This document shows positions 9,963-37,680 of a stretch of DNA of 64,000 nt, piece by piece. Source of the DNA: Gammaproteobacteria bacterium (GTDB lineage: Bacteria > Pseudomonadota > Gammaproteobacteria > UBA4575). How positions within the stretch are numbered: the first letter of the stretch is position 1; every line of letters starts with the position of its first letter. The notes beneath the pieces were generated by a model, which saw nothing but the letters and a program-made list of their open reading frames with translations, searched no databases and was not told the DNA's origin. The stretch covers positions 5,440-69,439 of the forward strand of contig JBGCDX010000098.1 of NCBI GenBank assembly GCA_045105815.1, given 5' to 3'. The position numbers and the translations under genes are program-made.

Positions 9963-10231
9963 TAGAGGTTGTACAGGTTTTATATTATGAGCGTTTCCAT
10001 TAATTACTATTTAATACAGTAAGTTAGGCTAACCACGATAAATCACTGCTTTTATTGTACAATACATGTATAAGTTATTTATGTAGTAGGTATATACATT
10101 ATGTGTACATTTTACTACGATGGTCTCAAGAAATCTCAAATATGCCGTTATACATAGTCATATAAAAAGATTTCAACTTTTTAAGATAATTTTACAATAT
10201 CTGTACAATGATTGTACATAAGGAGACTAAA

Positions 10232-11374
10232 GTGAAAAAATTACTCATTAACGCAAGGTACTTTTCAGCACCTCTGCTAATACTGGGAGCCTTGTTTGGT
10301 GTTCTCGCCGGCGGACCCTGGGTATGGACGGGTGTAGCATTACTCGGTGCTGCGATCATCATCGATACATTGGTAACCCGTGCCACCCCCGGCGCAGGTT
10401 TCGATGAAGACGGTAATACTAATGCAATTGTACCGTTACAGAATGGCATGATGTACGGAATGCTCGCCATCTTCATATTGTTGCAAATCGCATTAGGATG
10501 GCGCATTTCACAATATATGGATGCTGTGCCAATTGCGAACGCAACCTTGTTAGGTCTTGCTATTCAAAACGGAATAACAGGCTCGCAGTTAATCGGCGCA
10601 GTATTGTCTACAGGAATTTTTGCTGGTATCGGCATTATCTACGGACATGAGCTTGCACATACTAAAGGATTTAGTTTTGTAATCGCCCGTTGGATGATGG
10701 CTTTAAGTGGTAAAGCTCATTTCTGCTACGCACATGTATACAACCATCACTTAGAACTTGGACATCAAGACGATCCTGCTACCGCTCCACGAGGCAGAAG
10801 CTTATTTGCACATTACCCACTCTCAGGTATTGGTCAAAGTAAGTTTTTATTCCTAATGGAAAAGAGGCGTTTAGAAAGATTAGATGTGCCTTTCATATCA
10901 TGGAAAAACAGATGGCTACGTGGCTACGCCATGACATTACCAACTGTATTTCTATTTTGGTTCGCTGGTGGATGGATTGGTATTACATGTTTAGCTGGTG
11001 TTTGGTTTATCGCAAACTTCGAATTAGAGGCGCTTAACTACCTTGAGCACTATGGATTAATTCGTGAAAAAGGACAGCCAATTGACTATCGCCACAGCTG
11101 GGATAACAGCACTGCATTCACTAGTTGGTTTTTCATTGAGATTGGTCGTCAAGCTGACCACCATGATCGTGGAGAAACCCATTACTGGGAATTAGATGAA
11201 GTAGGTGCTCCTGATTGTGGCCGCGGTTACTTCACGCTGTTTGCCTTAGCGTTAATGCCAAAGGTTTGGCATAAGTTTATTAATAAGAAACTTAACGACT
11301 GGGATAACGAAATGGCATCTGAAGGTGAACTTAAAATAGCCAAAGAAATGAATACACAAGCCGGATATTCATAA
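10232..11374 (+). CDS. AlkB-type integral-membrane alkane/fatty-acid hydroxylase (non-heme diiron, His-box family)
   Basis: His boxes GHELAHTKG, NHHLELGH...DPATAPRGRS, NYLEHYGL and RQADHHDRGETHY align with the P. putida AlkB motifs HELGHK, EHNKGHH, NYIEHYGL and LQRHSDHHA. I prefer the GTG at 10232 because AGGAGA sits 5 nt upstream. The ATG at 10208 has no RBS. Confidence 0.7.
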   Translation: MKKLLINARYFSAPLLILGALFGVLAGGPWVWTGVALLGAAIIIDTLVTRATPGAGFDEDGNTNAIVPLQNGMMYGMLAIFILLQIALGWRISQYMDAVPIANATLLGLAIQNGITGSQLIGAVLSTGIFAGIGIIYGHELAHTKGFSFVIARWMMALSGKAHFCYAHVYNHHLELGHQDDPATAPRGRSLFAHYPLSGIGQSKFLFLMEKRRLERLDVPFISWKNRWLRGYAMTLPTVFLFWFAGGWIGITCLAGVWFIANFELEALNYLEHYGLIREKGQPIDYRHSWDNSTAFTSWFFIEIGRQADHHDRGETHYWELDEVGAPDCGRGYFTLFALALMPKVWHKFINKKLNDWDNEMASEGELKIAKEMNTQAGYS

Positions 11375-11460: not shown

Positions 11461-11859
11461 ATGAAAATGCAATCAAGCGAATCAAAACTTAACTTCCCAA
11501 AGGATTCACCTCATCTTGTATTTTATGATGACCGCTGTTCATTATGCACAGCAGAGATTAATCATTATCAAAAACTAGAGACATGCCATCCTATACAATG
11601 GATTGGGATCCATAAAAATCGAGATATTGTGCAACAACATAGCTTTACACAAAAGCAACTTTTAGAACGACTGCATGTAGTGCAAGGAAATGGAGAAACG
11701 CATATAGGAGCCTCTGCATTTATTACCATATGGCTTTCTATTAAACGTTATAGAGTGGTTGGACTAATGGTGAAAAAATTAAGGCTTACACCAATACTAA
11801 ATTATTTTTACGAACCCTTTGCGAAGCGGCGCTACCAGAAACGTATTTGTAAAATCTAG
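11461..11859 (+). CDS. DCC1-like thiol-disulfide oxidoreductase family protein (DUF393)
   Basis: 132 aa. Carries the hallmark VFYDDRCSLCTAEINHYQ (FYDGxCxLC-type motif). Confidence 0.75.
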   Translation: MKMQSSESKLNFPKDSPHLVFYDDRCSLCTAEINHYQKLETCHPIQWIGIHKNRDIVQQHSFTQKQLLERLHVVQGNGETHIGASAFITIWLSIKRYRVVGLMVKKLRLTPILNYFYEPFAKRRYQKRICKI

Positions 11860-12473
11860 ATTGAAGTATTCGCTCCTAATAGTGGCGTTTTAAGGTCAAC
11901 GATATCTGCTAACAATGAATTACCCGAAAGAAACAAACACTCTTCTTTTCCCATCTTAATTTCAAGAGATTGTTGGAGTGAACGTGCTAACGCATTTGCG
12001 CCTAACCTTTGATAATACGGTAGTTGTTGCATAAAAAATGGTAATTTTTCTACCAAGGGAGTTTCATTATTAACGCTGTGAATAAAGGCTTGTTCAAGAT
12101 CATTTACAGCCGTAACCACATCAGAATAGTCCTGCCAATCTAATGATAGGTCCAAACTCCAGCTCATATCTTTATTTAAGCTGCATTCAGAAAAATATAC
12201 TCCCGGATCATGTGTTATCCATGCCTGTGGCTCTATTAAACTCAATTTCCATTCTTGCTTTTTATAATATAAGTAATAAGCCTTACCTATGACGGGCTTA
12301 AAGCCATATTTAGCACCTAGCACCAAAGTAGAAGTAAAGTAATCTGCTAACCACTGATGACTGTTTTTAGCCTGTACATTTATAGGTGTAACAGCACGCA
12401 GATCATCAACAACACCAACTACACCCTTGCCTTGTGGGTTACTTATTTTTTGAATCTGTCCTGACATGTACAT
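11856..12473 (-). CDS. Hypothetical protein, last gene of the RR-HK-GT operon
   Basis: 205 aa with no recognisable motif and no TM. Co-directional with the upstream glycosyltransferase gene, 14 bp away. Confidence 0.5.
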   Translation of the reverse strand: MYMSGQIQKISNPQGKGVVGVVDDLRAVTPINVQAKNSHQWLADYFTSTLVLGAKYGFKPVIGKAYYLYYKKQEWKLSLIEPQAWITHDPGVYFSECSLNKDMSWSLDLSLDWQDYSDVVTAVNDLEQAFIHSVNNETPLVEKLPFFMQQLPYYQRLGANALARSLQQSLEIKMGKEECLFLSGNSLLADIVDLKTPLLGANTSI

Positions 12474-12486
12474 AATTTTACCAATA

Positions 12487-13248
12487 TTAAACCCGGATAT
12501 TGAAAATTTGGTCTGCTTTTAATACCTGTATACACTTTTCCATTGAGTTTGCACTGTACGCATCATCTTCATACAGAGAGTTACACAAATTAGCTGCAGC
12601 TATGGGTTGGGTTGATTTTCTTTGGAAAAGATCTAATGCCTCACCTCCACCATTTGTAATATCTTTTATAACCAATGGGCTAAGCATTCCTGCGCTTTCA
12701 AGAACAGGGCATTGAACTACATTATGAATAGCAGTTAATAATTTTGGGCCAATATATTGAGGCGGCATGTTGCCCATATTTTTTAATACCAAACGTTCTG
12801 CTGTATCGATATAGAACTCTAAAAATGGATTACCTTTTTTAAACATCATAAATGCATTATGCACTTTGATATACGCAATCAGTTTCTTCGGATTATCATG
12901 TGCACTTTGAACCCATACTTCTCGCCCAACTGCATAATTTTCATCAGGTAGAACAAATTGTGCAGGTAAAAATATTAGGAAATCTGCATCGCACCATACA
13001 ACCACCTCATACCCATCTTTCAAATATTTTTTTAATGCCAGCAAACGTGCTAAATCAGTAGCAATCACAATCTGATTTTTAGTCTTATTAAGAACATCAT
13101 TAGATACATAATCAAATAACTCATCACCAATGAATTTATAATCATAGTTATTAATTGAAGCCCAACTACGAACTGAATCTATACATATTTGTAGCCATTG
13201 CGCGGGCAGCGGTTGCCGATGGGACTGAAGAACAAGAGTTTTAGGCAT
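12487..13248 (-). CDS. DXD-motif glycosyltransferase (Gly_transf_sug-like)
   Basis: 253 aa. IATDLARLLALKKYLKDGYEVVVWCDADFLIF matches the sugar-binding/DXD region of OCH1/capsule-type glycosyltransferases. Start lies 4 bp after the histidine kinase stop. Confidence 0.55.
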   Translation of the reverse strand: MPKTLVLQSHRQPLPAQWLQICIDSVRSWASINNYDYKFIGDELFDYVSNDVLNKTKNQIVIATDLARLLALKKYLKDGYEVVVWCDADFLIFLPAQFVLPDENYAVGREVWVQSAHDNPKKLIAYIKVHNAFMMFKKGNPFLEFYIDTAERLVLKNMGNMPPQYIGPKLLTAIHNVVQCPVLESAGMLSPLVIKDITNGGGEALDLFQRKSTQPIAAANLCNSLYEDDAYSANSMEKCIQVLKADQIFNIRV

Positions 13249-13251
13249 GAT

Positions 13252-14316
13252 CTAAAGTGAGATAATAACTTTTAGTCCTGGCTGGTTATCTTCCAGTGAT
13301 ATAGAAGCTTTGTGCAACTTCAAAACCGCATTGACCAGACTTAATCCCAAGCCTGATCCTTCTATATGTTGCTGCTCTTGATCACGATAAAAGCGATCAA
13401 AAGCTTTTTCAACCGAACCATGAGGGATGCCAGGTCCATTATCTTGAATAATAATTATTTTTTCATTACTACTATTTTCAAGAGAAATTTTTATCACGCC
13501 ATTATGCTGAGTAAACTTAATCGCATTATCTAGAAGATTTGCTATCACTTGAAAAAATAAATCACGATCTCCCTTATAACTAATTGCTTTACTATCGACC
13601 GTAAATGTTTGGTTTTTTTCTTCAGCTAGGGGCATATATAGATCAACTGCATCTTGCACCACTTTTCCCAGATCAAATTCCTCAAACCTAGAGCCCTGAC
13701 GCCCTGATTCCAAACTAGACAAACTCAGTAATGCGTTAAATGTTTTTAATAAACTATCAACGTCTTTAACTAATGATGCTTTTCCTTCAATCTCATCATA
13801 TTTTTCCAAACCACTTTTATTTGAATTCTGCTCAAGTTTGTTTCTTAATCTTGCAAGTGGCGTACGTAAATCATGTGCAACCGTATCTGTAATATGTTGC
13901 ACACCTTCCATTAAGGTTTCAATTTTTTCAAGCATTTCATTCAAGACGTCTCCCAGAAAACTAAGATCGTCCCAGCGTGAATCAATTTCGATTCGCTTAG
14001 TTAAATCACCTGTTGTAATTATTTCTTGCGCCGTATTCGCTATACGATTAATGCGTGTTACCACAAAAACACTTATCAGATAACCCATCACACCCATGAT
14101 TAGCAAAGCTAATATGCTGATAACACTAAGTAGCACAAAAGCTTGGCTCAGCTCTGTTTCACTCTGCTGATAGAATAGATATATAGAAATGCTCAATGCA
14201 ATTACAGCAAATGCCAATAAAACTGCAAATAATGTTGCGACTTTAAAGCTAGAGCTGCTTCTATAATGCCTTTTTTTATTGCTTTTAAGTGTCGTCAATG
14301 ATGTAGCCTGCGCCAC
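13252..14316 (-). CDS. Sensor histidine kinase (two N-terminal TM helices with a minimal periplasmic loop, HAMP, HisKA, HATPase_c)
   Basis: H-box VAHDLRTPLARL. G-boxes IQDNGPGIP and GSGLGLSLV. The ORF begins at a GTG that overlaps the RR stop by 32 nt. Confidence 0.85.
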   Translation of the reverse strand: MAQATSLTTLKSNKKRHYRSSSSFKVATLFAVLLAFAVIALSISIYLFYQQSETELSQAFVLLSVISILALLIMGVMGYLISVFVVTRINRIANTAQEIITTGDLTKRIEIDSRWDDLSFLGDVLNEMLEKIETLMEGVQHITDTVAHDLRTPLARLRNKLEQNSNKSGLEKYDEIEGKASLVKDVDSLLKTFNALLSLSSLESGRQGSRFEEFDLGKVVQDAVDLYMPLAEEKNQTFTVDSKAISYKGDRDLFFQVIANLLDNAIKFTQHNGVIKISLENSSNEKIIIIQDNGPGIPHGSVEKAFDRFYRDQEQQHIEGSGLGLSLVNAVLKLHKASISLEDNQPGLKVIISL

Positions 14317-14962
14317 GCATAGTTTTAATGAGTTGTTTATCAGAGTTTTTATCTATTTTTTGTCGTAAGCGACTTATATGCACATCAATCACATTTGTCT
14401 GTGGATCAAAATGATAGTCCCATACATATTCTAGTAACATAGTGCGCGTTACGATTTGCCCTTTATGTCTTAAAAGGTATTCAAGTAATCTAAATTCTGT
14501 TGCTTGTAGAGAGACTTCTGCACCATTACTTTTGACTTTACGTGTCAATAAATCCAGCTCAACGCCTTGTGCTGATAAACATGTTTCTACATCTGCAGAC
14601 TTTCTATTTCTTCTATCTAGCGCTTCAATTCTTGCCAACAGTTCAGAAAAGGCAAAAGGTTTAACTAAATAGTCATCACCACCCGCTCGCAAACCCTTTA
14701 CACGGTCATCCACTTCACCAAGAGCACTGAAAATTAATATTGGCGTTATATTGCCAGCACCTCGTAACGTTTTAATAATTGTGAGGCCATCTATACCTGG
14801 AAGCATTCTATCAATAAGTAATACATCGTATTGCTCGGTTGTGCTTAAAAACAAGCCATCATTACCATCGGCTGCAGTATCTACAACATGACCTATTTCA
14901 GTTAGGCCGTTACTTACATAATCAAGTAGTTCTTGGTCATCTTCTATACAAAGGATACGCAT
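14285..14962 (-). CDS. OmpR-family response regulator (receiver plus winged-helix)
   Basis: Trimmed to MRILCIEDDQELL (ATG at 14960-14962). The longer ORF adds an unlikely hydrophobic leader. C-terminal trans_reg_C-like domain ...LLEYVWDYHFDPQTNVIDVHISRLRQKI. Confidence 0.9.
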   Translation of the reverse strand: MRILCIEDDQELLDYVSNGLTEIGHVVDTAADGNDGLFLSTTEQYDVLLIDRMLPGIDGLTIIKTLRGAGNITPILIFSALGEVDDRVKGLRAGGDDYLVKPFAFSELLARIEALDRRNRKSADVETCLSAQGVELDLLTRKVKSNGAEVSLQATEFRLLEYLLRHKGQIVTRTMLLEYVWDYHFDPQTNVIDVHISRLRQKIDKNSDKQLIKTMRGAGYIIDDT

Positions 14963-15003
14963 AATAATCACTATGATACTGGCTACAGACAAATATCCAA
15001 TGT

Positions 15004-15017
15004 TTGTAAAATTACAA
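15004..15017. promoter_or_regulatory. Palindrome TTGTAAAATTACAA in the divergent RR / lipid-modification-cluster intergenic region
   Basis: Perfect 6-bp arms with a 2-bp centre. Lies 42 bp upstream of the RR start codon (14962) and 81 bp upstream of the cluster start (15098). Confidence 0.3.
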
Positions 15018-15097
15018 AAATTTAATGCTCGGTTAAGGTCAATTTTAAGCAAGAAAGTACATACTAGAGGGGATATTTAACACACAAACCAATAACC

Positions 15098-15667
15098 ATG
15101 CAGATAAAGCACTTAAGTTATTCATTACTTTTACTATGGTTTTTTTCATCGGCATCATCGGCGACTAGTAACCAAGTATTCAGTCCATTACCTAACCAAG
15201 TGCTAGAAAGATGGAATAATTTTTCATTCGTTGGTGAAACCACGTTACGTCGTTATGGATTCCACGTGTATGACGCTTCTTTTTGGATAATGGGAGATAA
15301 ATCAGACAATTTTAGCTCTTCTGATATTTTATCTAACCATTCGTATGCTTTAAGCATTACCTATGCACGAAAAATAAGTGCACAACAATTATTGTCTAGT
15401 ACAAAAAAAGAATGGCAAAGACTAGGGTTTGCGAAGCGATACCCTCTCAATGCATGGTTGATCATGTTAGAAAACATTTGGCCAAGTGTTGAGAAAGGAG
15501 ATCAATTAATCGTGGTAGTAACTACGCAAGGAAAAACAACATTCTTTAATAAAAGCAATTCACTGGGCACCATTGATGATTCAAAATTTGGCCCAGCATT
15601 TTTATCTATCTGGCTAGACGAAAATTCACGCTTTAAGAAGAACCGTGAGGAACTATTAGGTGAGTAA
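15098..15667 (+). CDS. Chalcone-isomerase-like family secreted protein
   Basis: 189 aa with a signal peptide. VGETTLRRYGFHVYDASFWI resembles the Chalcone_3 family core. First gene of the eight-gene overlapping cluster. Confidence 0.5.
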   Translation: MQIKHLSYSLLLLWFFSSASSATSNQVFSPLPNQVLERWNNFSFVGETTLRRYGFHVYDASFWIMGDKSDNFSSSDILSNHSYALSITYARKISAQQLLSSTKKEWQRLGFAKRYPLNAWLIMLENIWPSVEKGDQLIVVVTTQGKTTFFNKSNSLGTIDDSKFGPAFLSIWLDENSRFKKNREELLGE

Positions 15668-16208
15668 ATTACAATTAATAAGACATTTAACTAGTTTTTT
15701 AGCAATAGTACTGATTTTAGGCTGCAGTACTACCACTTCAGATTATCAAGATACTCAACCTGAATTTGACCTTAAAGAGTATTTCACTGGTGAACTCAAA
15801 GGCTGGGGCTTAATAAAAAATTATCAAGGGAAAGTTACCAAACGGTTTACCGTAGAAATGACTGGCACATGGAAAGAAAACAAAGGTGTCTTATATGAAT
15901 TATTTACATACCAAGATGGCACTACACAAGAGCGTACGTGGTACTTAACGAAACAAGATAACAATATAAATACTGGTACTGCTAGTGATGTTGTCGGTGA
16001 AGCATCAGGCACACAAGAAGGTTTTTCATTTAATTGGAATTATGACTTGTTATTTGAGTCAGATGGCAAACAAATTCAAGTTCATTTACAAGATTGGTTA
16101 TACCAAGTAGACGACCATGCCGTTATTAGCGAAGCAAAAATTAAAAAGTTTGGTATCAATGTTGGCGAAGTGATCATATTTATACTCAAACAGGATGCAC
16201 AACAATGA
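15660..16208 (+). CDS. DUF3833-like lipoprotein
   Basis: GTG start overlaps the upstream gene by 8 nt. Lipobox LILGCSTTTS. The EYFTGELKGWG motif region is typical of DUF3833 (from memory). Confidence 0.5.
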   Translation: MSKLQLIRHLTSFLAIVLILGCSTTTSDYQDTQPEFDLKEYFTGELKGWGLIKNYQGKVTKRFTVEMTGTWKENKGVLYELFTYQDGTTQERTWYLTKQDNNINTGTASDVVGEASGTQEGFSFNWNYDLLFESDGKQIQVHLQDWLYQVDDHAVISEAKIKKFGINVGEVIIFILKQDAQQ

Positions 16209-16630
16209 GCTCACCACAAATTGAACAATTCATAAAAAATATGAATTCCATCCAACATGAAAATGCTAAACATGTGTTAGCAAATATATATACCGATGAT
16301 GTTGTTTTCATTGACCCTGTAAAAACTATAAAAGGTGTAGAAAACTTAACAAAGTACTTCGAAGACCTTTATAAAAGCGTCTCTTCTTGCCATTTCAAGT
16401 TAACTAATAATGTACCTAATAATAATCGCTATTCATTGGAATGGATAATGACTCTACAACATAAGAAAATATCAAATAATCAAGAGATTGAGTTGAATGG
16501 AGCATCATTTATTGAATTTATCGACGATAAAGTTTGTTACCACCGTGACTACTATGATCTCGGCGCTTTAGTTTATGAACGTATTCCGATACTTGGCTCA
16601 GTAATTAAAAAAATTCGTCATGCTATCTAA
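16205..16630 (+). CDS. NTF2/SnoaL-like family protein
   Basis: 141 aa. Composition is compatible with the alpha+beta cone fold. Overlaps the upstream gene by 4 nt (ATGA). Confidence 0.55.
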   Translation: MSSPQIEQFIKNMNSIQHENAKHVLANIYTDDVVFIDPVKTIKGVENLTKYFEDLYKSVSSCHFKLTNNVPNNNRYSLEWIMTLQHKKISNNQEIELNGASFIEFIDDKVCYHRDYYDLGALVYERIPILGSVIKKIRHAI

Positions 16631-17426
16631 TAAGACACAAAAACATTTTGAAAATAAAGTGATCTGGGTGACCGGTGCTTCATCAGGCATTGGCCGAGCA
16701 TTGGTCATTATGCTATCTAACATAGATTGTAAAATATATATTTCTTCACGCTCTGAAGATAATTTACATAAGACAATCGCCCAATGCCGAGACTCAAACA
16801 AAAAAAATATAGTCGTTCTAGCAGGAGATTTAACAAACAAACAAGTTAATCAAGAAATTCTAAAGAATATTGAACAAACCTCTGGAAAATTGGATATAGC
16901 AGTCTTAAATGCAGGTTCTTGTGAGTATGTTGATATAAATAATTTTGACAGCTCGTTATTTGAACGTCAGATAAAGACAAATTTTTTAAGTATGGTGTAT
17001 GGAATTGAGGCAGCCCTGCCTTTATTAAAGAAATCCGTAGAAGCCCAGCTAATAGGAATGAGTAGTACTGCTGCATATCTGGGTCTACCACGAGCTGAAG
17101 CTTATGGTGCTACCAAAGCTGCAATACGCAATATGTTCGCTGCCTTACGTGTAAGTTTACAGGCTCACAAAATAAGCAGTTCGGTAATCTGCCCAGGTTT
17201 TGTTGAAACAGAGCTTACTGCAAAAAATGATTTTGATATGCCTGCGATGATAACGGCTGTTAAATCTGCTGAATATATACTTAATGGAATCGCCAAACAT
17301 AAACAAGAAATACATTTTCCAAAGCGATTTAGCCTAACACTAAAACTAATAGCGTCTTTACCTAACCCAGTGGTTAGTTGGCTAATAAGAAAAACCATAC
17401 CAAAAAGCAGCAATACCAACACATGA
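16620..17426 (+). CDS. Short-chain dehydrogenase/reductase (SDR)
   Basis: VTGASSGIGRAL cofactor motif. Catalytic YGATKAA (YxxxK). Overlaps the upstream gene by 11 nt. Confidence 0.85.
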   Translation: MLSNKTQKHFENKVIWVTGASSGIGRALVIMLSNIDCKIYISSRSEDNLHKTIAQCRDSNKKNIVVLAGDLTNKQVNQEILKNIEQTSGKLDIAVLNAGSCEYVDINNFDSSLFERQIKTNFLSMVYGIEAALPLLKKSVEAQLIGMSSTAAYLGLPRAEAYGATKAAIRNMFAALRVSLQAHKISSSVICPGFVETELTAKNDFDMPAMITAVKSAEYILNGIAKHKQEIHFPKRFSLTLKLIASLPNPVVSWLIRKTIPKSSNTNT

Positions 17427-18700
17427 AGATTGCAATAATAGGTTCAGGTATTGCTGGTCTAACTGCCGCACATTTATTGCACCCAGACCATGACATTACT
17501 GTTTATGAATCAGATAGCTATGTTGGTGGGCATGCGAATACTATCGACGTAACTATGAAAGATACCACTATTTCTATAGATACCGGTTTTATTGTATTCA
17601 ATGACTGGACCTATCCCAACTTTGAAAAACTAATTAACTCCTTAGATATTCAGATTCAAAACTCAGAAATGAGTTTTTCGGCAATATGTGAAGAAAGCGG
17701 ATTTGAATGGTCTGGTAATGGCTTAAAAGGTTTAATTTTTAATTCTGATAACTGGAAACAACTAAAGCCTTATCAAATATTTTATGACATTGTTAGATTT
17801 AAGAAATTAGCATTAGCATTTTTAAACCAGAAAAATGAACAAATGACTCTTGGTGATTTTTTAGCTACTAATGAGTTCAGCGCACCCTTCATCAAGTATT
17901 ACATTTTACCTATGGGTGCAGCTATATGGTCTTCTACACTTGAGCAGATCAATGAATACCCGTGCAAAAGTTTTTTAACGTTTTTCAAAAATCATGGCTT
18001 ATTAAATTTAAAAATCCGACCACAATGGAAAACTGTTGTCGGCGGATCTAAACGATATGTCACTGAACTAATCAAACCATTTGAAAATAAAATTCATACC
18101 AATAGTGCAGTAACCAAAGTAAAGAGAGTTGCAGGTCGAGTTGAAATCTTCTCAACTGGACGCAGTCCTGCGTATTTTGATCATGTCTTCTTTGCTTGTC
18201 ATAGTGATCAAACATTAGCTTTATTAGACCATTGCAGCTCAAATGAAATTAATATTTTAGGTGATATCCAATATCAAGATAATATTGCTGTTTTGCATAC
18301 CGATGAATCAACCATGCCAAAAAGAGAAACTGCCTGGTCGTCTTGGAATTACTTTATCCCCAAAGAAAATACAGGCAATGCGAATGTAACTTACTATATG
18401 AATCGCTTACAGAACCTAAATTGTAAGAAAAATTACTTTGTAACACTAAACCCTTGCCAAAATATACATTCATCCAAAGTTTTAAAAACTATTCACTACA
18501 AGCACCCTGTATTTGATACTCCTGCAATTAATGCACAAAAGCACTATGAAACCATCAACGGAAAAGAGAATACATGGTTCTGTGGCGCTTATTGGCGTAA
18601 TGGTTTTCATGAAGATGGTGTATGGAGCGCAATCCGCGCTGTTGATAACTTTAACATGTATTTAAAAGATGAAGAGCTGCATTTACAAAGGGCGAGTTAG
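17423..18700 (+). CDS. NAD(P)/FAD-dependent oxidoreductase (amine-oxidase / phytoene-desaturase-like)
   Basis: Start moved to MKIAIIGSGIAGLTAAHLL (Rossmann GxGxxG). Forms an ATGA overlap with the SDR stop. About 425 aa. Confidence 0.8.
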   Translation: MKIAIIGSGIAGLTAAHLLHPDHDITVYESDSYVGGHANTIDVTMKDTTISIDTGFIVFNDWTYPNFEKLINSLDIQIQNSEMSFSAICEESGFEWSGNGLKGLIFNSDNWKQLKPYQIFYDIVRFKKLALAFLNQKNEQMTLGDFLATNEFSAPFIKYYILPMGAAIWSSTLEQINEYPCKSFLTFFKNHGLLNLKIRPQWKTVVGGSKRYVTELIKPFENKIHTNSAVTKVKRVAGRVEIFSTGRSPAYFDHVFFACHSDQTLALLDHCSSNEINILGDIQYQDNIAVLHTDESTMPKRETAWSSWNYFIPKENTGNANVTYYMNRLQNLNCKKNYFVTLNPCQNIHSSKVLKTIHYKHPVFDTPAINAQKHYETINGKENTWFCGAYWRNGFHEDGVWSAIRAVDNFNMYLKDEELHLQRAS

Positions 18701-19406
18701 ACATCAGCGCTATGCACCTCGCGTGCATGCATTCACGTATTCATTATTTATGATGTATGTGGATTTAGATGAATTACCTACATTATTCAACAAACATTTT
18801 TTATGGGCAGTAAATAAAACCAATTTGGCCTCATTTCATCGCAATGATCATCATGGCGACAATGTGTCTCTTGCTAATTCAATACGTGAGCTAGTTTTTG
18901 ATAAATCTGGAGAAAATGTAGAAGGACCAATTAGACTGCTTACTCACTTTCGTTATTTTGGCTATGTATTCAATCCTATCAGTATGTACTTTTGTTATGA
19001 CGCTGCTGGAGAAAATGTGACCCATGTTGTAGCTGAAGTAATGAATACACCTTGGAAAGAACAACATTGTTATGTGCTGTCAAACAAACAGCATGATCAA
19101 GTTATTTCAGCTAAACATAAAAAAGAATTTCATGTGTCTCCTTTTATGCATATGAATATGGAGTACCACTGGAATATTCATACCCCTGACCAACATATGA
19201 ATATAAATATTGAGAATTGGTCTGATAATAAAATGGTTTTTGATGCATCCATGTACTTAGAAAAGATTGAATTATCCACCTCTAACTTAAGAAATGTTTT
19301 ATTTAATTTTCCTTTAATGACATTAAAGGTTACTACGATGATTCATTTTGAGGCACTAAAACTTTGGATCAAGGGGATCCAATATATACCCCACCCTAAA
19401 AACTAA
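18669..19406 (+). CDS. DUF1365 family protein
   Basis: N-terminus MKSCIYKGRVRHQRYAPRVHAFTYSLFMMYVDLDELP matches the DUF1365 signature. Overlaps the upstream gene by 32 nt. Confidence 0.75.
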   Translation: MKSCIYKGRVRHQRYAPRVHAFTYSLFMMYVDLDELPTLFNKHFLWAVNKTNLASFHRNDHHGDNVSLANSIRELVFDKSGENVEGPIRLLTHFRYFGYVFNPISMYFCYDAAGENVTHVVAEVMNTPWKEQHCYVLSNKQHDQVISAKHKKEFHVSPFMHMNMEYHWNIHTPDQHMNINIENWSDNKMVFDASMYLEKIELSTSNLRNVLFNFPLMTLKVTTMIHFEALKLWIKGIQYIPHPKN

Positions 19407-19418
19407 CAGGTTTCAAGA

Positions 19419-20672
19419 ATGTCGATAGTCCCTAAATATAAAAATACACAAAATATTCGTAGCGAATTGAGCTGGTCTGAACAAATAGTATGCGCAGCTT
19501 TATTTAAAAAACTTGATCTAATTAATGTTGGATTTTTGCAAGTTCATGTAAATGATATTGTCTATGATTTTGGCATCAAAGAGATGCAAACCGAGTTACA
19601 TGCTGTAATTCATGTAATTGATACGCGTGTGTTCAAAGCCATACTATTTGGCGGTGAGCCTGCAGCAGGAAATACATACGTAAAAGGTTGGTGGTCTTCA
19701 GACAACTTAATCAATGTAATGCGTTTATTCACACTAAACCGAGAAGTATTGTTTTCATTTAAATCTGGGTTTGCTTCATTAGCTAAACGCGCTTATGCGA
19801 TAACACATTTTACTAACAAAAATAACCAACAAGGATCAAAGCGAAATATAACTGCTCACTATGATATTGGTAATGACTTATACAAGTTATTTTTAGATGA
19901 AAGCATGATGTACTCTTCCGCATGCTTCACCCGACAACACACAACACTGGAAGATGCCTCAGCGCACAAGCTGAATATAATTTGTGAGAAATTGGAGCTA
20001 AACTCAACTGACCATGTGCTAGAAATTGGTAGCGGCTGGGGTGGCTTTGCCATCTACGCTGCACAACACTACGATTGCAAAGTTACCACAACCACTATTT
20101 CAGATGAGCAGTACTCATATCTGCATGACAAAGTCACTAGCCATAATTTAACAAATAAAATTACAATATTAAAACAAGATTATCGCAACCTTGAAGGCCA
20201 GTATGACAAATTAGTTTCGATTGAAATGATCGAATCTGTAGGACATCAATTCATAAATGAATATTTCTCCATTTGCAGTAGATTACTAAAACCAAATGGA
20301 GCGATGTTAATTCAGGCCATCACTATTTCAGACTATCTGTACGATCACTACATTCAATCAATGGATTTTATACGTAAATATGTTTTTCCTGGTGGCAGCT
20401 TACCAAGCATGTCATCAATGCTTAGCGCTATAGCCAGCAGTAGCGACTTAACCTTATTTCATAGTGAAAGCTATGCGTCCAGTTACGCTAAAACATTAAA
20501 AATTTGGCATCAACGATTTATTACTAATAAAGAAAAAGTAATAGAACTGGGTTATGGAAATGCATTTATTCGCTTATGGGAGTATTACTTAAAGTACTGT
20601 CAAGCAGGTTTTGAAGAAAGAGTTATCGATGTACAACAAATTGTATTAAAGAAACCAGAAAATCGTTTCTAA
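19419..20672 (+). CDS. Cyclopropane-fatty-acyl-phospholipid-synthase-like SAM-dependent methyltransferase
   Basis: 417 aa. SAM motif VLEIGSGWGGFAIYAA. CFA-synthase-type N- and C-terminal regions. Confidence 0.85.
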   Translation: MSIVPKYKNTQNIRSELSWSEQIVCAALFKKLDLINVGFLQVHVNDIVYDFGIKEMQTELHAVIHVIDTRVFKAILFGGEPAAGNTYVKGWWSSDNLINVMRLFTLNREVLFSFKSGFASLAKRAYAITHFTNKNNQQGSKRNITAHYDIGNDLYKLFLDESMMYSSACFTRQHTTLEDASAHKLNIICEKLELNSTDHVLEIGSGWGGFAIYAAQHYDCKVTTTTISDEQYSYLHDKVTSHNLTNKITILKQDYRNLEGQYDKLVSIEMIESVGHQFINEYFSICSRLLKPNGAMLIQAITISDYLYDHYIQSMDFIRKYVFPGGSLPSMSSMLSAIASSSDLTLFHSESYASSYAKTLKIWHQRFITNKEKVIELGYGNAFIRLWEYYLKYCQAGFEERVIDVQQIVLKKPENRF

Positions 20673-20679
20673 ATAAATA

Positions 20680-21231
20680 ATGAAAAATAACTTAAGGTTC
20701 TTAATATTTAACTTTGTTGGACTTCAAGTGACATGGGCCGCATGCGCCTATGGAGCAACCCATTCCTTTCCAACGCTTGGTCTTTATGTAGGTTTAGCAT
20801 ACATAATCTTACATTTTTATTTGAGCAAACAGCGTATACGCGATCTTAAAATTATGCTTATCATAGCTGTAGTTGGAATTATTCTTGATATGATACTTAC
20901 GCAAATAAATATTTTGTCATTCCCAATTGCCACAAATGATTCTTTGATTATTCCTGCATGGTTAATGGCTTTGTGGTTTGTATTCGCCTTAATGGTACCT
21001 TATAGCCTGTATTGGTTAAGTAAAAACTTAAAGATTGCTGCTATTGCTGGAGCCATTGGAGGTAGCTTTAGTTACTTTCTTGGCCACCAACTAGATGCAC
21101 TACAGTTAGCAGAACCTTTAATAATGAGCGTAGGAATTTATTTCCTAAAATGGGGGATTATATTTCCTGCAGCATTACTAGTCGTTAAACACATTACGAA
21201 TAATCAGCTAAACATAAAGACCACTGCCTAA
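20680..21231 (+). CDS. Small polytopic membrane protein (DUF2878-like), last gene of the cluster
   Basis: 183 aa with 4-5 TM helices. Begins 8 nt after the methyltransferase stop. Confidence 0.45.
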   Translation: MKNNLRFLIFNFVGLQVTWAACAYGATHSFPTLGLYVGLAYIILHFYLSKQRIRDLKIMLIIAVVGIILDMILTQINILSFPIATNDSLIIPAWLMALWFVFALMVPYSLYWLSKNLKIAAIAGAIGGSFSYFLGHQLDALQLAEPLIMSVGIYFLKWGIIFPAALLVVKHITNNQLNIKTTA

Positions 21232-21242
21232 AAAAGCCATAC

Positions 21243-21992
21243 TTAAGCTAATAAATCAGCATTCACTATATTTTCAGCAAACCCTTGATATGCATTTTCG
21301 AACTGCTTAGCCATACTGTCTGGAAAAGCATGGAACACTCCCTTCTGAAGCGCTTCAAGAATACTGTCCGCAACTAAACTTGGTGGTTCTGCTATTTCAC
21401 CTATTCCAGCATTGGTAGCCATATCCGTTGCGATTGGCCCAGGATGCACACTTACTACCGTAGTACCTTGCTCTTTCAATAAATCACGTAGCGCTTGAGT
21501 AATTGAATAAGCTGCTGCCTTTGATGCGCTGTAGGTTGCAAATGGGGCAAAACACTTTATTGACGCAAGTGAATTGAGTTGTATGAGCGCTCCCCCACCA
21601 TTCTTTTTCAGCACAGGCGCAAAAGCTTGAGCTATTCTTATTAAACCCGATACATTCATATCCATTTCATACGCCATGCTATCCAATGCATTTACATCTA
21701 AAGGAGTTGTTGTATTGAGCACCCCCGCATTGTTTACAACCATATCCACATCTGACGCATATTGTGCCGCTTGCAAAATCGTTTCAGGCTTTCCCAGATC
21801 TACATGTATCACTTCAACACGATCACCATATTTATCAGTCAAAGCTTTAGCTGACTCTATATTTCTAACTGCTAAATAAACTTTTTTAACACCCGCTTTA
21901 TCTAAAAATGTTTCTGCAATTACTTTTCCTATGCCTCGGTTTGCACCAGTCACCAATGCAGTCTTACCTTCCGTCTCAAACGAAGTCGCCAT
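21243..21992 (-). CDS. SDR family oxidoreductase
   Basis: VTGANRGIGK cofactor motif. Catalytic YSASKAA. Convergent with the cluster. Confidence 0.85.
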   Translation of the reverse strand: MATSFETEGKTALVTGANRGIGKVIAETFLDKAGVKKVYLAVRNIESAKALTDKYGDRVEVIHVDLGKPETILQAAQYASDVDMVVNNAGVLNTTTPLDVNALDSMAYEMDMNVSGLIRIAQAFAPVLKKNGGGALIQLNSLASIKCFAPFATYSASKAAAYSITQALRDLLKEQGTTVVSVHPGPIATDMATNAGIGEIAEPPSLVADSILEALQKGVFHAFPDSMAKQFENAYQGFAENIVNADLLA

Positions 21993-22157: not shown

Positions 22158-22511
22158 ATGAATATTCATGAAAAAATTAATTATGTAGAACTTCCTGCTA
22201 AAAACATAAACGCCACCAAAGCGTTTTTTGAGAAAGCTTTTGGGTGGACATTCACTGACTATGGGCCTGATTATGCAGCTTTTGAAAACCAAGGACTTGA
22301 TGGAGGATTTTTCACGTCAGACCTCATATCTTCAACCCATAATGGCAGTGCGTTAGTGATTTTTTACAGCAATACACTAGAAGAAACTCAAACAAAAATC
22401 GAGAAAGCTGGTGGCACTATAATTCAAGAGATATTTTCTTTCCCAGGTGGAAAACGCTTCCATTTTACAGATCCAAATGGCAATGAATATGCAGTCTGGT
22501 CAGACAAATGA
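22158..22511 (+). CDS. VOC/glyoxalase-bleomycin-resistance family protein
   Basis: 117 aa. Glyoxalase-like beta-alpha-beta-beta-beta module (KAFFEKAFGWTFTDYGPDYAAF). Confidence 0.8.
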   Translation: MNIHEKINYVELPAKNINATKAFFEKAFGWTFTDYGPDYAAFENQGLDGGFFTSDLISSTHNGSALVIFYSNTLEETQTKIEKAGGTIIQEIFSFPGGKRFHFTDPNGNEYAVWSDK

Positions 22512-31176: not shown

Positions 31177-31367
31177 TGAATTAATCCCTGAAGATATGGA
31201 TGAACAAACGTTTAATCGCTGCGTACTATAAAGATTTGTAGCGGAATCGTCGAGTCAAACAGTGTAATTATATTTGCAAGATGATGGCGATATTAGCCAT
31301 TTAGTATATGGCTACACTCAACTATTCATAATGAGATGGTTAAGCTACCACCTTAGCTACGCTGCAT

Positions 31368-37221: not shown

Positions 37222-37680
37222 TTGAGAAATTTTATATACCAACATTCAATCTCTAGCCATATCTTTGTAATTATGCAGATGGGTGGCATAGCTACCTGTT
37301 GTTATCCAGTTGGTTTACAGAATTCAGGCAGCATCTATTGGTTAGTATTGTGTGCACTGGGTGCAATACTAGGTGTATTAACACTTTGTTATAACAAGAT
37401 CGGCAACTTTAGCGTCTACCCTGAAATTAAAAGTAAAGCCATATTAATAACCATTGGTCCCTATCGATATATTAGACATCCTATGTATACAAGCTTGATA
37501 ATAATGATGTGTGGTATCGCACTCTATAATTATCATTGGTTAAATGCTGTAGGTGTAATTCTTGTGTTAAGCGCAGTAATAAATAAAGCTAATATTGAAG
37601 AAAAGTTGTTACTCATAAGATTTACAGGCTACGCAAATTATCAGCGTAAAAGTCATCGATTTTTGCCATTTATATATTAA
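37222..37680 (+). CDS. Isoprenylcysteine carboxyl methyltransferase (ICMT)/phospholipid methyltransferase family membrane protein
   Basis: The motif GPYRYIRHPMYTS is diagnostic. The ORF begins at a TTG. The true start may be the ATG at 37273 (MQMGG...). Confidence 0.7.
   Translation: MRNFIYQHSISSHIFVIMQMGGIATCCYPVGLQNSGSIYWLVLCALGAILGVLTLCYNKIGNFSVYPEIKSKAILITIGPYRYIRHPMYTSLIIMMCGIALYNYHWLNAVGVILVLSAVINKANIEEKLLLIRFTGYANYQRKSHRFLPFIY

Follow-up and report, generated by a model that had tools for sequence, protein, structure and literature searches.

Organization and recurrence of the eight-gene cluster

Eight co-directional ORFs on the + strand occupy positions 15098–21231 of the window, the whole stretch of 64 kb that was analysed, which comes from an uncultured lineage represented by a metagenome-assembled genome, a low-GC marine gammaproteobacterium. 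In order, they encode a chalcone-isomerase-fold protein, a DUF3833 lipoprotein, an NTF2/SnoaL-like protein, a short-chain dehydrogenase/reductase (SDR), an FAD-dependent UfaD-like protein, a DUF1365 protein, a CFA-synthase-family methyltransferase, and a DUF2878 membrane protein; a response regulator and a histidine kinase diverge from them. The genes are joined by overlaps of 4–32 nt or gaps of 7–12 nt; the recomputed junctions (−8, −4, −11, −4, −32, +12, and +7 nt) and the ORF list agree with the compact layout described in an earlier note on this DNA. The −4 nt junction of genes 4 and 5 is the ATGA at 17423, and the starts listed for gene 5 are 17378 or 17423. Promoter-like and terminator-like enrichment was looked for inside the cluster and was not found. 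All eight Pfam assignments exceed the gathering score, so that the domains proposed from the letters, including DUF1365, CFA-synthase, and amine-oxidase, are borne out by the profile search.

The gene content is not new, because annotated clusters that unite the eight families are already known from cultured Pseudoalteromonas and Salinivibrio. The order in Pseudoalteromonas shioyasakiensis p1 is sigma-70/ChrR-DUF1722-phrB-NTF2-SDR-FAD-DUF1365-CFAS-DUF2878-CHI-DUF3833, and the cluster of Salinivibrio kushneri starts DUF1722-MerR-phrB; in both, the eight families lie on one strand with 30–49% identity to the window proteins, and the internal order NTF2-SDR-UfaD-UfaO-methylase-DUF2878 is identical. 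In contrast, the chalcone-isomerase-like (CHI) and DUF3833 genes are the first of the operon here and the last there, the photolyase and DUF523/DUF1722 genes are absent here, and a two-component system is found instead of ChrR/ECF sigma (Pseudoalteromonas) or MerR (Salinivibrio). The partners that had been called essentially undescribed are indeed functionally uncharacterized, but they are already annotated in the same cluster of Pseudoalteromonas, Salinivibrio, and Aeromonas (PMC10012899). The arrangement is not due to chance, since the same order and the divergent regulators recur in other loci; the eight genes in this order with the divergent pair are present in L001, L003, L004, L009, L010, L011, L092, and L095, with protein identities of 57–88%, and the regulator-kinase pair is kept with the cluster though the outer flanks differ.

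The probable furan fatty-acid core

Genes 5–7 match, by family and order, ufaD-ufaO-ufaM of Rhodopseudomonas palustris, arranged as RPA2571-2570-2569 (PMC7380195). Gene 5 (17423..18700, +; 425 aa from the ATG at 17423) is UfaD-like (Pfam NAD_binding_8 4e-13, Amino_oxidase 1e-11), has the amine oxidase LkcE as its nearest solved structure (6e-29), and is 40–49% identical to homologues of Rhizobium, Pseudoalteromonas, and Salinivibrio; in 79 of 80 loci, a gene of its family directly precedes DUF1365. Gene 6 (18669..19406, +; 245 aa) is UfaO-like and matches DUF1365 over its full length (8e-82); 7769 homologues were found, and a search for a solved structure gave no match. Gene 7 (19419..20672, +; 417 aa; Pfam CMAS 4e-83) is a SAM methyltransferase of the CFA-synthase family, a member of which follows DUF1365 in 79 of the 80 loci. 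It scores below the NCBIfam cut-off for a true Cfa (272 vs 400 bits) and is 34% identical to E. coli Cfa and 41–47% to post-UfaO methylases; at the position of Cfa H266, a histidine that helps to bind the bicarbonate cofactor, gene 7 and all the post-UfaO methylases compared carry Gln. The ufaD>ufaO>methylase trio shares one strand in 78 of 80 loci of wide phylogenetic spread, in line with the wide conservation that the earlier note gave for this core, and the FAD and CFA-like assignments given there in general terms can be narrowed to UfaD, UfaO, and a methylase in the ufaM (RPA2569) position.

Furan fatty acids are antioxidants in membrane lipids. They are made by marine gammaproteobacteria (PMC3528120), and the region is read, with moderate confidence, as an operon for the formation of methylated furan fatty acids on existing membrane phospholipids, provided with lipid-handling accessories and switched by its own two-component system. 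The assignment of the core steps follows the proven pathway of R. sphaeroides and R. palustris, to which the genes are linked by homology and in which UfaD is a desaturase and UfaO a DUF1365 protein involved in O2-dependent furan formation (PMC7380195). Gene 7 would methylate the cis-vaccenoyl chain to 11-methyl-12-trans-18:1, UfaD (gene 5) would generate the 10,12-diene, and UfaO (gene 6) would insert an oxygen atom from O2 with the closure of the furan ring. By family and order, gene 7 holds the place that UfaM (RPA2569) has in R. palustris, and in P. syringae the best match of UfaM is the methylase after DUF1365 (PMC5507510); in R. sphaeroides, however, this position is taken by a dispensable methylase, RSP1089, with the functional UfaM encoded elsewhere (PMC7380195), and gene 7 could therefore be of the RSP1089 type.

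The link drawn in the earlier note between the RSP1087-1091 region of R. sphaeroides, the sigma-E/ChrR regulon, and furan fatty acids is found in the literature (PMC7380195, PMC3546557, PMC5507510). As in R. palustris RPA2571-RPA2569 and R. sphaeroides RSP1091-RSP1087 (Lemke et al. 2020, PMC7380195), FAD desaturase, DUF1365, and CMAS-family methylase genes share one strand and the same order; the R. sphaeroides operon also includes an SDR (RSP1087) and RSP1088, annotated as a lipoprotein, and both kinds of partner are present here. Unlike those systems, the cluster has neither adjacent rpoE-chrR nor a sigma-E promoter motif, carries extra NTF2, DUF2878, CHI-fold, and DUF3833 genes, and belongs to a low-GC marine gammaproteobacterium. 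The likeness is one of family and order rather than of directly compared sequences, and genes 5–7 are therefore taken as orthologues of the proven enzymes on the strength of their Pfam families, the gene order, and cross-references in the literature.

Accessory genes and alternative products

Gene 1 (15098..15667, +; 189 aa; Pfam Chalcone_3 39.5 bits, E 8e-10) has a Sec-type signal sequence and a chalcone-isomerase fold whose closest counterparts are fatty-acid-binding proteins of plants, and gene 2 (15660..16208, +; 182 aa; Pfam DUF3833 6e-61) has the lipobox LILGC, with Cys22 invariant in 40 homologues, and a 10-strand calycin/FABP-like beta-barrel. Judging from the folds, the former is probably a periplasmic fatty-acid or lipid binder and the latter probably a binder of hydrophobic ligands anchored to the outer membrane; the ligands that the two probably bind or shuttle, at the outer membrane or in the periplasm, would be furan lipids or products of their oxidation. 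Identity to AtFAP1/AtFAP3, the plant chalcone-isomerase-fold FAPs, and to calycin/FABP/nitrobindin barrels is only 7–14%, and export through a signal peptide or as a lipoprotein sets the two proteins apart from these.

The NTF2/SnoaL-like product of gene 3 (16205..16630, +; 141 aa; Pfam SnoaL_2 9e-12) is cytoplasmic, and its family directly precedes the SDR in the Pseudoalteromonas, Salinivibrio, and Aeromonas clusters (PMC10012899). The SDR of gene 4 (16620..17426, +; 268 aa; Pfam adh_short 1e-41) is 38–41% identical to the SDRs encoded in the Pseudoalteromonas and Salinivibrio clusters and is of the same family as PSPTO_1119 and RSP1087, an SDR dispensable for furan fatty-acid synthesis (PMC5507510, PMC7380195). 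Gene 8 (20680..21231, +; 183 aa; Pfam DUF2878 1e-36) encodes a polytopic membrane protein in which hydrophobic segments are seen; DUF2878 is present at 34 of 80 ufa loci, and its V. cholerae homologue VC1123 adjoins the cluster there (PMC12971978). By analogy with RSP1087-1089, SDR included, the NTF2-like, SDR, and DUF2878 proteins may be conserved companions dispensable for the synthesis itself, and they may process oxidized furan lipids.

That the product is another modified fatty acid (methyl-branched, conjugated-diene, cyclopropane, or a reduced or oxidized form derived through the SDR and NTF2-like proteins) is unlikely: the location of gene 7 at the position of RSP1089, not needed for furan fatty acids in R. 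sphaeroides, and the possible other oxidation roles of DUF1365 noted by Lemke et al. (PMC7380195) speak in its favor, together with the tight coupling of the SDR and NTF2 genes to ufaD (4–11 nt overlaps) and an identity of only about 37–40% to alphaproteobacterial-type homologues, but the co-linearity of the trio argues for one conserved three-step function and a second methylase is unneeded if gene 7 works as UfaM. A cluster mainly devoted to the repair or detoxification of oxidized membrane lipids, with oxidoreductases acting on peroxidation products and periplasmic binders for their removal, has a very low probability; UfaD and UfaO have been shown genetically and in vitro to act in biosynthesis (PMC7380195) and a SAM methylase has no obvious task in repair, even though three redox enzymes (SDR, FAD oxidase, and DUF1365) are encoded, both lipid-binding folds are exported, and genes for a glyoxalase, a second SDR, and a thiol oxidoreductase of the DCC1-like kind lie nearby, as does one for methionine sulfoxide reductase in relatives.

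The divergent two-component system

The OmpR-family, CusR/HprR-like response regulator (14285..14962, −; 225 aa; Pfam Response_reg and Trans_reg_C) most likely starts at the ATG at 14962 rather than at the TTG at 15052, which gives a spacer of 135 bp to the cluster; in NCBIfam it comes nearest to the CusR/CopR/HprR models, with every score under the cut-off, and it is 45% identical to E. coli CusR. The histidine kinase (13252..14316, −; 354 aa) has two TM helices followed by HAMP, HisKA, and HATPase domains (Pfam). The outer loop between the helices counts only ~10 residues in the hydropathy profile and in a 7-sequence alignment, and the NCBIfam match to CusS begins only past the sensor domain; the kinase is thus predicted to be of the intramembrane-sensing type and, being almost devoid of a periplasmic part, would read its signal within or at the membrane or via a partner protein. 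Conserved Cys or Met residues hinting at direct oxidant sensing were not found in the TM region of the 7-sequence alignment.

The spacer contains a 16-bp imperfect palindrome, ATTACAAAAATTTAAT (15011..15026), a candidate binding site of the regulator and the only place in the 64 kb that fits ATTAmAwAnATTTAAT exactly. An alignment of the spacers from 7 loci shows this box to be invariant. When the kinase was used for a reverse search, 12 metagenome loci were obtained; the six that combine an identity of at least 42% with sufficient flanking sequence all adjoin ufa genes, in two gene layouts. L098 and L099 show the co-directional order RR>HK>ufaD>ufaO, with 42–44% identity for the kinase and 68% for the regulator, and the box is upstream of ufaD. 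If one mismatch is allowed, each of the 13 loci with an orthologous kinase has the box directly upstream of its ufa genes, whatever the layout (24 matches observed vs 1.1 in shuffles). The divergent pairing, present here and kept in relatives, is therefore much better supported than by its passing mention in the earlier note, and this dedicated pairing, in place of light or singlet-oxygen regulators, is the distinguishing feature of the locus.

A regulator-kinase operon divergent from a single target operon, with an AT-rich palindromic box in the spacer, is also the organization of E. coli CusRS/cusCFBA and HprRS (YedWV/HypVW)/hiuH-msrPQ, the latter responding to oxidants (PMC8249747; bioRxiv 10.1101/2021.09.09.459708). 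However, CusS and HprS have a full periplasmic sensor domain, the half-site is ATTAAAT here and TGACAA there, the present system does not reach the NCBIfam thresholds of the heavy-metal subfamily, and its target is a lipid-modification operon. On comparative grounds, the CusR-like regulator would bind the palindrome and from there control the eight-gene operon as well as its own, and in this lineage the two-component system would replace the ChrR/sigma-E or MerR/photolyase control by light and singlet oxygen. The locus would thus represent a known pathway for furan fatty acids under a different regulation, with its own membrane-embedded sensor kinase and regulator.

The two-component system might instead be a mere neighbour, the cluster being governed by an unlinked ChrR/sigma-E or MerR-type regulator elsewhere in the genome, of which 64 kb are visible. 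V. cholerae and P. syringae encode the regulators away from the cluster (PMC5241685, PMC5507510); with an ECF sigma within 10 kb at about 6 of 80 diverse loci, rpoE/chrR are not the usual neighbours that they had been taken for, and MerR-type regulators occur at about 16 of the 80. The absence of rpoE/chrR holds within the window, where ORFs for ECF sigma, ChrR, or MerR/PhrR-like proteins and a photolyase gene were not found. Such unlinked control is quite improbable, since the sigma-E-type motif TGATC-N15-19-CGTA was not found near or upstream of the cluster and its two matches elsewhere in the window are at chance level, photolyase and DUF1722, companions of ChrR/MerR control elsewhere, are missing, and both the presence of ufa genes beside every kinase orthologue with sufficient flanking sequence, in two independent layouts, and the recurrent box argue for dedicated control.

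Directly downstream of the kinase, with gaps of 3 and 13 nt, genes for an unclassified 253-aa protein, without a match in Pfam, NCBIfam, or PDB, and for a weak DUF2452 protein (205 aa) are located at 11856..13248 (−); they may share a transcript with the two-component genes, and the pair is kept behind the kinase in L001, L009, and L010 only. A gene for a DCC1-like (DUF393) thiol-disulfide oxidoreductase is located at 11461..11859 (+; Pfam DCC1-like 4.5e-21), and in L004, L005, L006, L011–L013, and L091–L096 such a gene directly adjoins the kinase or the cluster.

The probable furan fatty-acid gene set

The eight co-directional genes at 15098-21231 (+), which encode a chalcone isomerase (CHI)-like protein, a DUF3833 protein, an NTF2/SnoaL-like protein, an SDR, a UfaD-like protein, a UfaO-like DUF1365 protein, a CFA-synthase-like methylase and a DUF2878 protein, probably constitute a furan fatty-acid (FuFA) operon with lipid-handling accessories that is switched by its own two-component system, as judged from sequence. 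Experiments in alphaproteobacteria have established how the core works, and the gene content is known; the difference here appears to be a dedicated CusR-like regulator, a short-loop kinase and a conserved putative operator instead of light and singlet-oxygen regulators. The genes, the overlapping layout and the families proposed in an earlier note all held: the ORF list gives the same coordinates, the recomputed junctions are -8, -4, -11, -4 (ATGA at 17423), -32, +12 and +7 nt, and all eight products score above the Pfam gathering thresholds (Chalcone_3, DUF3833, SnoaL_2, adh_short, NAD_binding_8/Amino_oxidase, DUF1365, CMAS and DUF2878, respectively). No enrichment of promoter-like or terminator-like sites was found inside the eight-gene cluster.

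Genes 5, 6 and 7 can be likened, by family and gene order, to the characterised enzymes of R. sphaeroides and R. palustris. In R. sphaeroides, RSP1091 is the FAD desaturase UfaD (Lemke et al. 2020, PMC7380195), RSP1090 is the DUF1365 protein UfaO, which closes the furan ring with O2, and the methylase UfaM is RSP2144, located elsewhere in the genome; the CFA-synthase-like RSP1089, RSP1088 and RSP1087 are dispensable, the last of these, an SDR, for FuFA synthesis (PMC7380195). Gene 5 matches NAD_binding_8/Amino_oxidase as a UfaD-type FAD oxidoreductase and overlaps the DUF1365 gene by 32 nt, gene 6 matches PF07103 (DUF1365, the UfaO family) at 8e-82 over residues 5-244 of 245, and gene 7 matches the Pfam CMAS family at 4e-83. 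A survey restricted to one genome per species yielded 80 loci from Nitrospira, Planctomycetes, Acidobacteria, beta- and gammaproteobacteria; the UfaD-type gene lies immediately upstream of the DUF1365 gene in 79 of them, and the ufaD-ufaO-methylase trio is on one strand in 78, the two exceptions being contig ends. As a stand-in for the characterised alphaproteobacterial enzymes, homologues encoded on a ChrR-carrying Rhizobium plasmid were compared; they are 37% (UfaO) and 40% (UfaD) identical to the window proteins. Among solved structures, UfaD comes closest to LkcE and the methylase to E. coli Cfa, and none was found for DUF1365.

The methylase gene stands in the position of RPA2569 (UfaM), a place equally occupied by the dispensable RSP1089. 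The P. syringae protein that best matches UfaM is the methylase encoded after DUF1365 (PMC5507510). Against the NCBIfam model of the true cyclopropane synthase (Cfa), gene 7 scores 272 bits, below the cut-off of 400, and so is not a canonical Cfa. At the site corresponding to His266, a bicarbonate ligand in E. coli Cfa, Gln is found in 4/4 post-DUF1365 methylases compared, gene 7 included (L007, L101 and L102 were in the comparison; here and below, L numbers denote homologous loci in other genomes or metagenomes), in a region where the alignment is gapped, and the His is kept in the two examples of a second methylase type found with DUF1295; at the position of Cfa Cys139, gene 7 has Ser. These Gln and Ser changes could matter for the choice between methyl-olefin and cyclopropane chemistry. 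As a separate observation, DUF1295 accompanies the ufa (furan fatty-acid) genes in 48 of 80 other loci, and a small PEMT/ICMT-like membrane methyltransferase of 152 aa at 37222-37680 (+) weakly matches the DUF1295 probe; lying 16 kb away, it is probably unrelated to the cluster.

The eight-gene content is already annotated in cultured bacteria, hence it is not new. Cultured examples were located by tblastn of plasmids and chromids: in Pseudoalteromonas shioyasakiensis the annotated genes are sigma-70, ChrR, DUF523/DUF1722, phrB, NTF2, SDR, FAD oxidoreductase, DUF1365, CFA-synthase family, DUF2878, chalcone isomerase family and DUF3833, and Salinivibrio kushneri has the same set but with MerR replacing sigma/ChrR. 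The window proteins share 30-49% identity with those of the Pseudoalteromonas and Salinivibrio clusters, from which the window operon differs in that the two putative exported lipid binders (genes 1 and 2) are moved to the operon head. In Aeromonas salmonicida a six-gene unit from NTF2 to DUF2878 is a predicted operon (PMC10012899), and the listed regulon of the MerR-type PhrR includes the DUF2878 gene VC1123 of V. cholerae (PMC12971978). The host lineage consists of uncultured marine gammaproteobacterial MAGs, and furan fatty acids are made by marine gammaproteobacteria (PMC3528120). A gene 100% identical to gene 1 at the protein level is found as one NCBI MAG protein, and the best species-level match of UfaO (79%) belongs to a MAG labelled Thiotrichales.

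The divergent regulator pair and its candidate operator

The two-component system noticed beside the cluster was confirmed as a divergent OmpR-type regulator (14285-14962, -) and a histidine kinase (13252-14316, -). The regulator ORF most likely starts with the ATG at 14962, leaving a divergent spacer of 135 bp. The regulator shares 45% identity with CusR of E. coli, and its best NCBIfam models all score below their cut-offs (cztR_silR_copR, 242.6 vs 279.2; CusR, 229 vs 420; HprR, 216 vs 353). The kinase has two transmembrane helices followed by HAMP-HisKA-HATPase, and the CusS model aligns to it from model position 154 onwards; no periplasmic sensor domain is present between TM1 and TM2, the loop being about 10 residues in 7/7 aligned orthologues. 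Because of this short TM1-TM2 separation, the kinase is, by its predicted topology, of the intramembrane-sensing type. Its membrane region contains no conserved Cys or Met suggesting direct oxidant chemistry.

The pair is tied to the ufa genes by three lines of evidence: co-conservation, a reverse search with the kinase and a conserved box. The pair and the eight genes are kept together in L001, L003, L004 and L009-L011, where the outer flanks vary. In a sister lineage that shares the chromosomal neighbourhood of L004 (L005, L006, L012 and also L013), the pair and genes 1 and 2 are missing, the layout being DCC1 < DUF3429 > NTF2 > SDR > ufaD > ufaO > methylase; since the pair is absent along with the genes for CHI and DUF3833, it and the two putative exported binders appear to have been gained or lost together. 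The reverse search with the kinase alignment found 12 metagenome loci; every one of the six that are at least 42% identical and have sufficient flanking sequence adjoins ufa genes. At L098 and L099 the short-loop kinase (42-44% identity) and the regulator (68%) are co-directional and directly upstream of ufaD-ufaO.

The third line is a 16-bp imperfect palindrome, ATTAmAwAnATTTAAT, at 15011-15026, in the spacer between the regulator and gene 1. No other exact match exists in the 64 kb, and the box is unchanged across seven aligned spacers. When up to one mismatch is allowed, 13/13 loci with a kinase orthologue have it, always in the spacer preceding the ufa genes; at L098 and L099 it lies 60 bp ahead of ufaD and overlaps the stop codon of the kinase gene. 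The matches observed number 24, vs 1.1 in shuffles. We infer from sequence the binding of the regulator to this candidate box and the direction of control. The window layout mirrors that of cusRS/cusCFBA, whose spacer contains the palindrome AAAATGACAATTTTGTCATTTT, and HprRS/HypVW, a close relative of CusRS, is oxidant-responsive (PMC8249747; bioRxiv 10.1101/2021.09.09.459708). The sole other match in the window with at most one mismatch, at 13735-13750 (-), was rejected as a second operator and taken as coding conservation, since it falls inside the coding sequence of the kinase and relatives have it too (L001, 5064-5079; L010, 5061-5076); an internal regulatory site at this place is possible.

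OmpR-type regulator/kinase pairs also stand directly upstream of the ufa clusters of other uncultured proteobacteria (L033, L040, L042 and L081). They were set aside as another system, their kinases being unrelated (21-26% identity to the window kinase) and provided with periplasmic domains. The ufa genes may have come under two-component control on more than one occasion.

Singlet-oxygen control and the inducing signal

The absence of rpoE/chrR was borne out in the window, where neither Pseudoalteromonas and Rhizobium ECF/ChrR probes nor E. coli RpoE gave a match and Pfam searches of candidate-size ORFs found no ECF sigma or ChrR; likewise, no probe match to a MerR/PhrR-like regulator, photolyase (phrB) or DUF1722 was obtained in the 64 kb. 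The photolyase/MerR set is present in Salinivibrio and in about 16/80 loci. The earlier note had regarded adjacent rpoE/chrR as the usual state, which the survey contradicts: an ECF sigma is nearby in only about 6 of the 80 loci and a MerR-type gene in about 16. A ChrR pair located elsewhere in the genome is a possible alternative source of control, as the rpoE/chrR pair is unlinked to the cluster in V. cholerae and P. syringae (PMC5241685, PMC5507510). The sigma-E motif is reported as TGATC-N16-18-CGTA (PMC5241685, PMC5507510), and a search of the window with TGATC-N15-19-CGTA found no sigma-E-type promoter near the cluster or its upstream spacer (14963-15097); the two matches obtained, at 31358 and 35442, are a chance-level count and distant from the eight genes.

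As membrane lipids, furan fatty acids scavenge radicals. Their bacterial pathway was not solved until 2020, and the only regulatory circuits known for them respond to singlet oxygen (ChrR/sigma-E) or light (MerR). The ufa pathway appears here wired to a putative membrane-embedded two-component sensor with a candidate operator and is without photolyase, which suggests that furan-lipid synthesis is also deployed on a non-light, membrane-borne signal. A more specific and rather unlikely proposal is that the short-loop kinase senses the state of membrane lipids, oxidised furan or polyunsaturated acyl chains being perceived directly in the bilayer or via the CHI-fold and calycin-barrel binders or DUF2878; antioxidant lipid pathway and sensor would then form one module, a light-independent feedback loop. 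FuFA-pathway genes are required for sigma-E activation in R. sphaeroides (PMC3546557), and a lipid-state kinase, if true, would be the two-component counterpart of this finding and, among bacterial two-component systems, the first devoted to furan-lipid homeostasis. The candidate box, the regulator and the kinase offer a compact system for finding the inducing signal.

Accessory proteins and neighbouring genes

Gene 1 has a signal sequence and gene 2 a lipobox with an invariant cysteine. The AlphaFold model of the DUF3833 protein (pLDDT 94) is a closed antiparallel barrel of 10 strands, within the 8-10 of calycin/FABP-like barrels, and its closest structures are BFA1, nitrobindin/Rv2717c, CpeS-type lyases and OlmO, the FABPs being more distant; the model of gene 1 (pLDDT 84) has a chalcone-isomerase fold with Arabidopsis FAP3 and FAP1 among its top structural matches. 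Exported barrels for hydrophobic ligands seem recurrent at ufa clusters, since a Blc-type lipocalin gene lies directly upstream of ufaD in others of them. The models support a putative role of genes 1 and 2 in periplasmic lipid binding, with no particular ligand, and would provide first working hypotheses for DUF3833 and bacterial CHI-like proteins, which are widespread partners. Single-sequence or profile searches of the PDB with DUF1365, DUF3833, DUF2878, the CHI-like protein and a 253-aa neighbour gave nothing meaningful. The reading of DUF2878 as an INSIG-like diacylglycerol-binding protein, based on a weak NCBIfam match (E 0.0024, 17.8 bits vs a cut-off of 280), was dropped because the profile search gave no support.

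Downstream, a second, convergent SDR gene (21243-21992) ends 11 nt past the DUF2878 stop and is followed by a glyoxalase-family gene (22158-22511). Both are considered neighbours and not cluster members because only the closest relatives (L001-L003, L009 and L010) retain them, and L004 and L011 have msrA and other genes in their place.

On the other side, a DCC1-like (DUF393) thiol-disulfide oxidoreductase gene (11461-11859, +) recurs next to the kinase or the ufa cluster in L004, L005, L011-L013 and L091-L096, with and without the two-component system, and its product may be a further functional partner. A 388-aa membrane protein (10208-11374, +; Pfam FA_desaturase, 3e-28), also upstream in L001, displays by eye the histidine motifs of alkane hydroxylases (HELAH, NYLEHYGL and ADHHDRG); it could be an AlkB-like hydroxylase, not an acyl desaturase. 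Two genes (11856-13248, -) follow the kinase gene closely, the gaps being 3 and 13 nt; they encode the 253-aa protein, which had no Pfam, NCBIfam or PDB match, and a weak DUF2452 protein. The 253-aa protein contains a stretch, VVWCDADFLIF, that by eye resembles the DxD motif of glycosyltransferases; L001, L009 and L010 share the two genes, and L081 likewise has a DUF2452 homologue near its ufa cluster.
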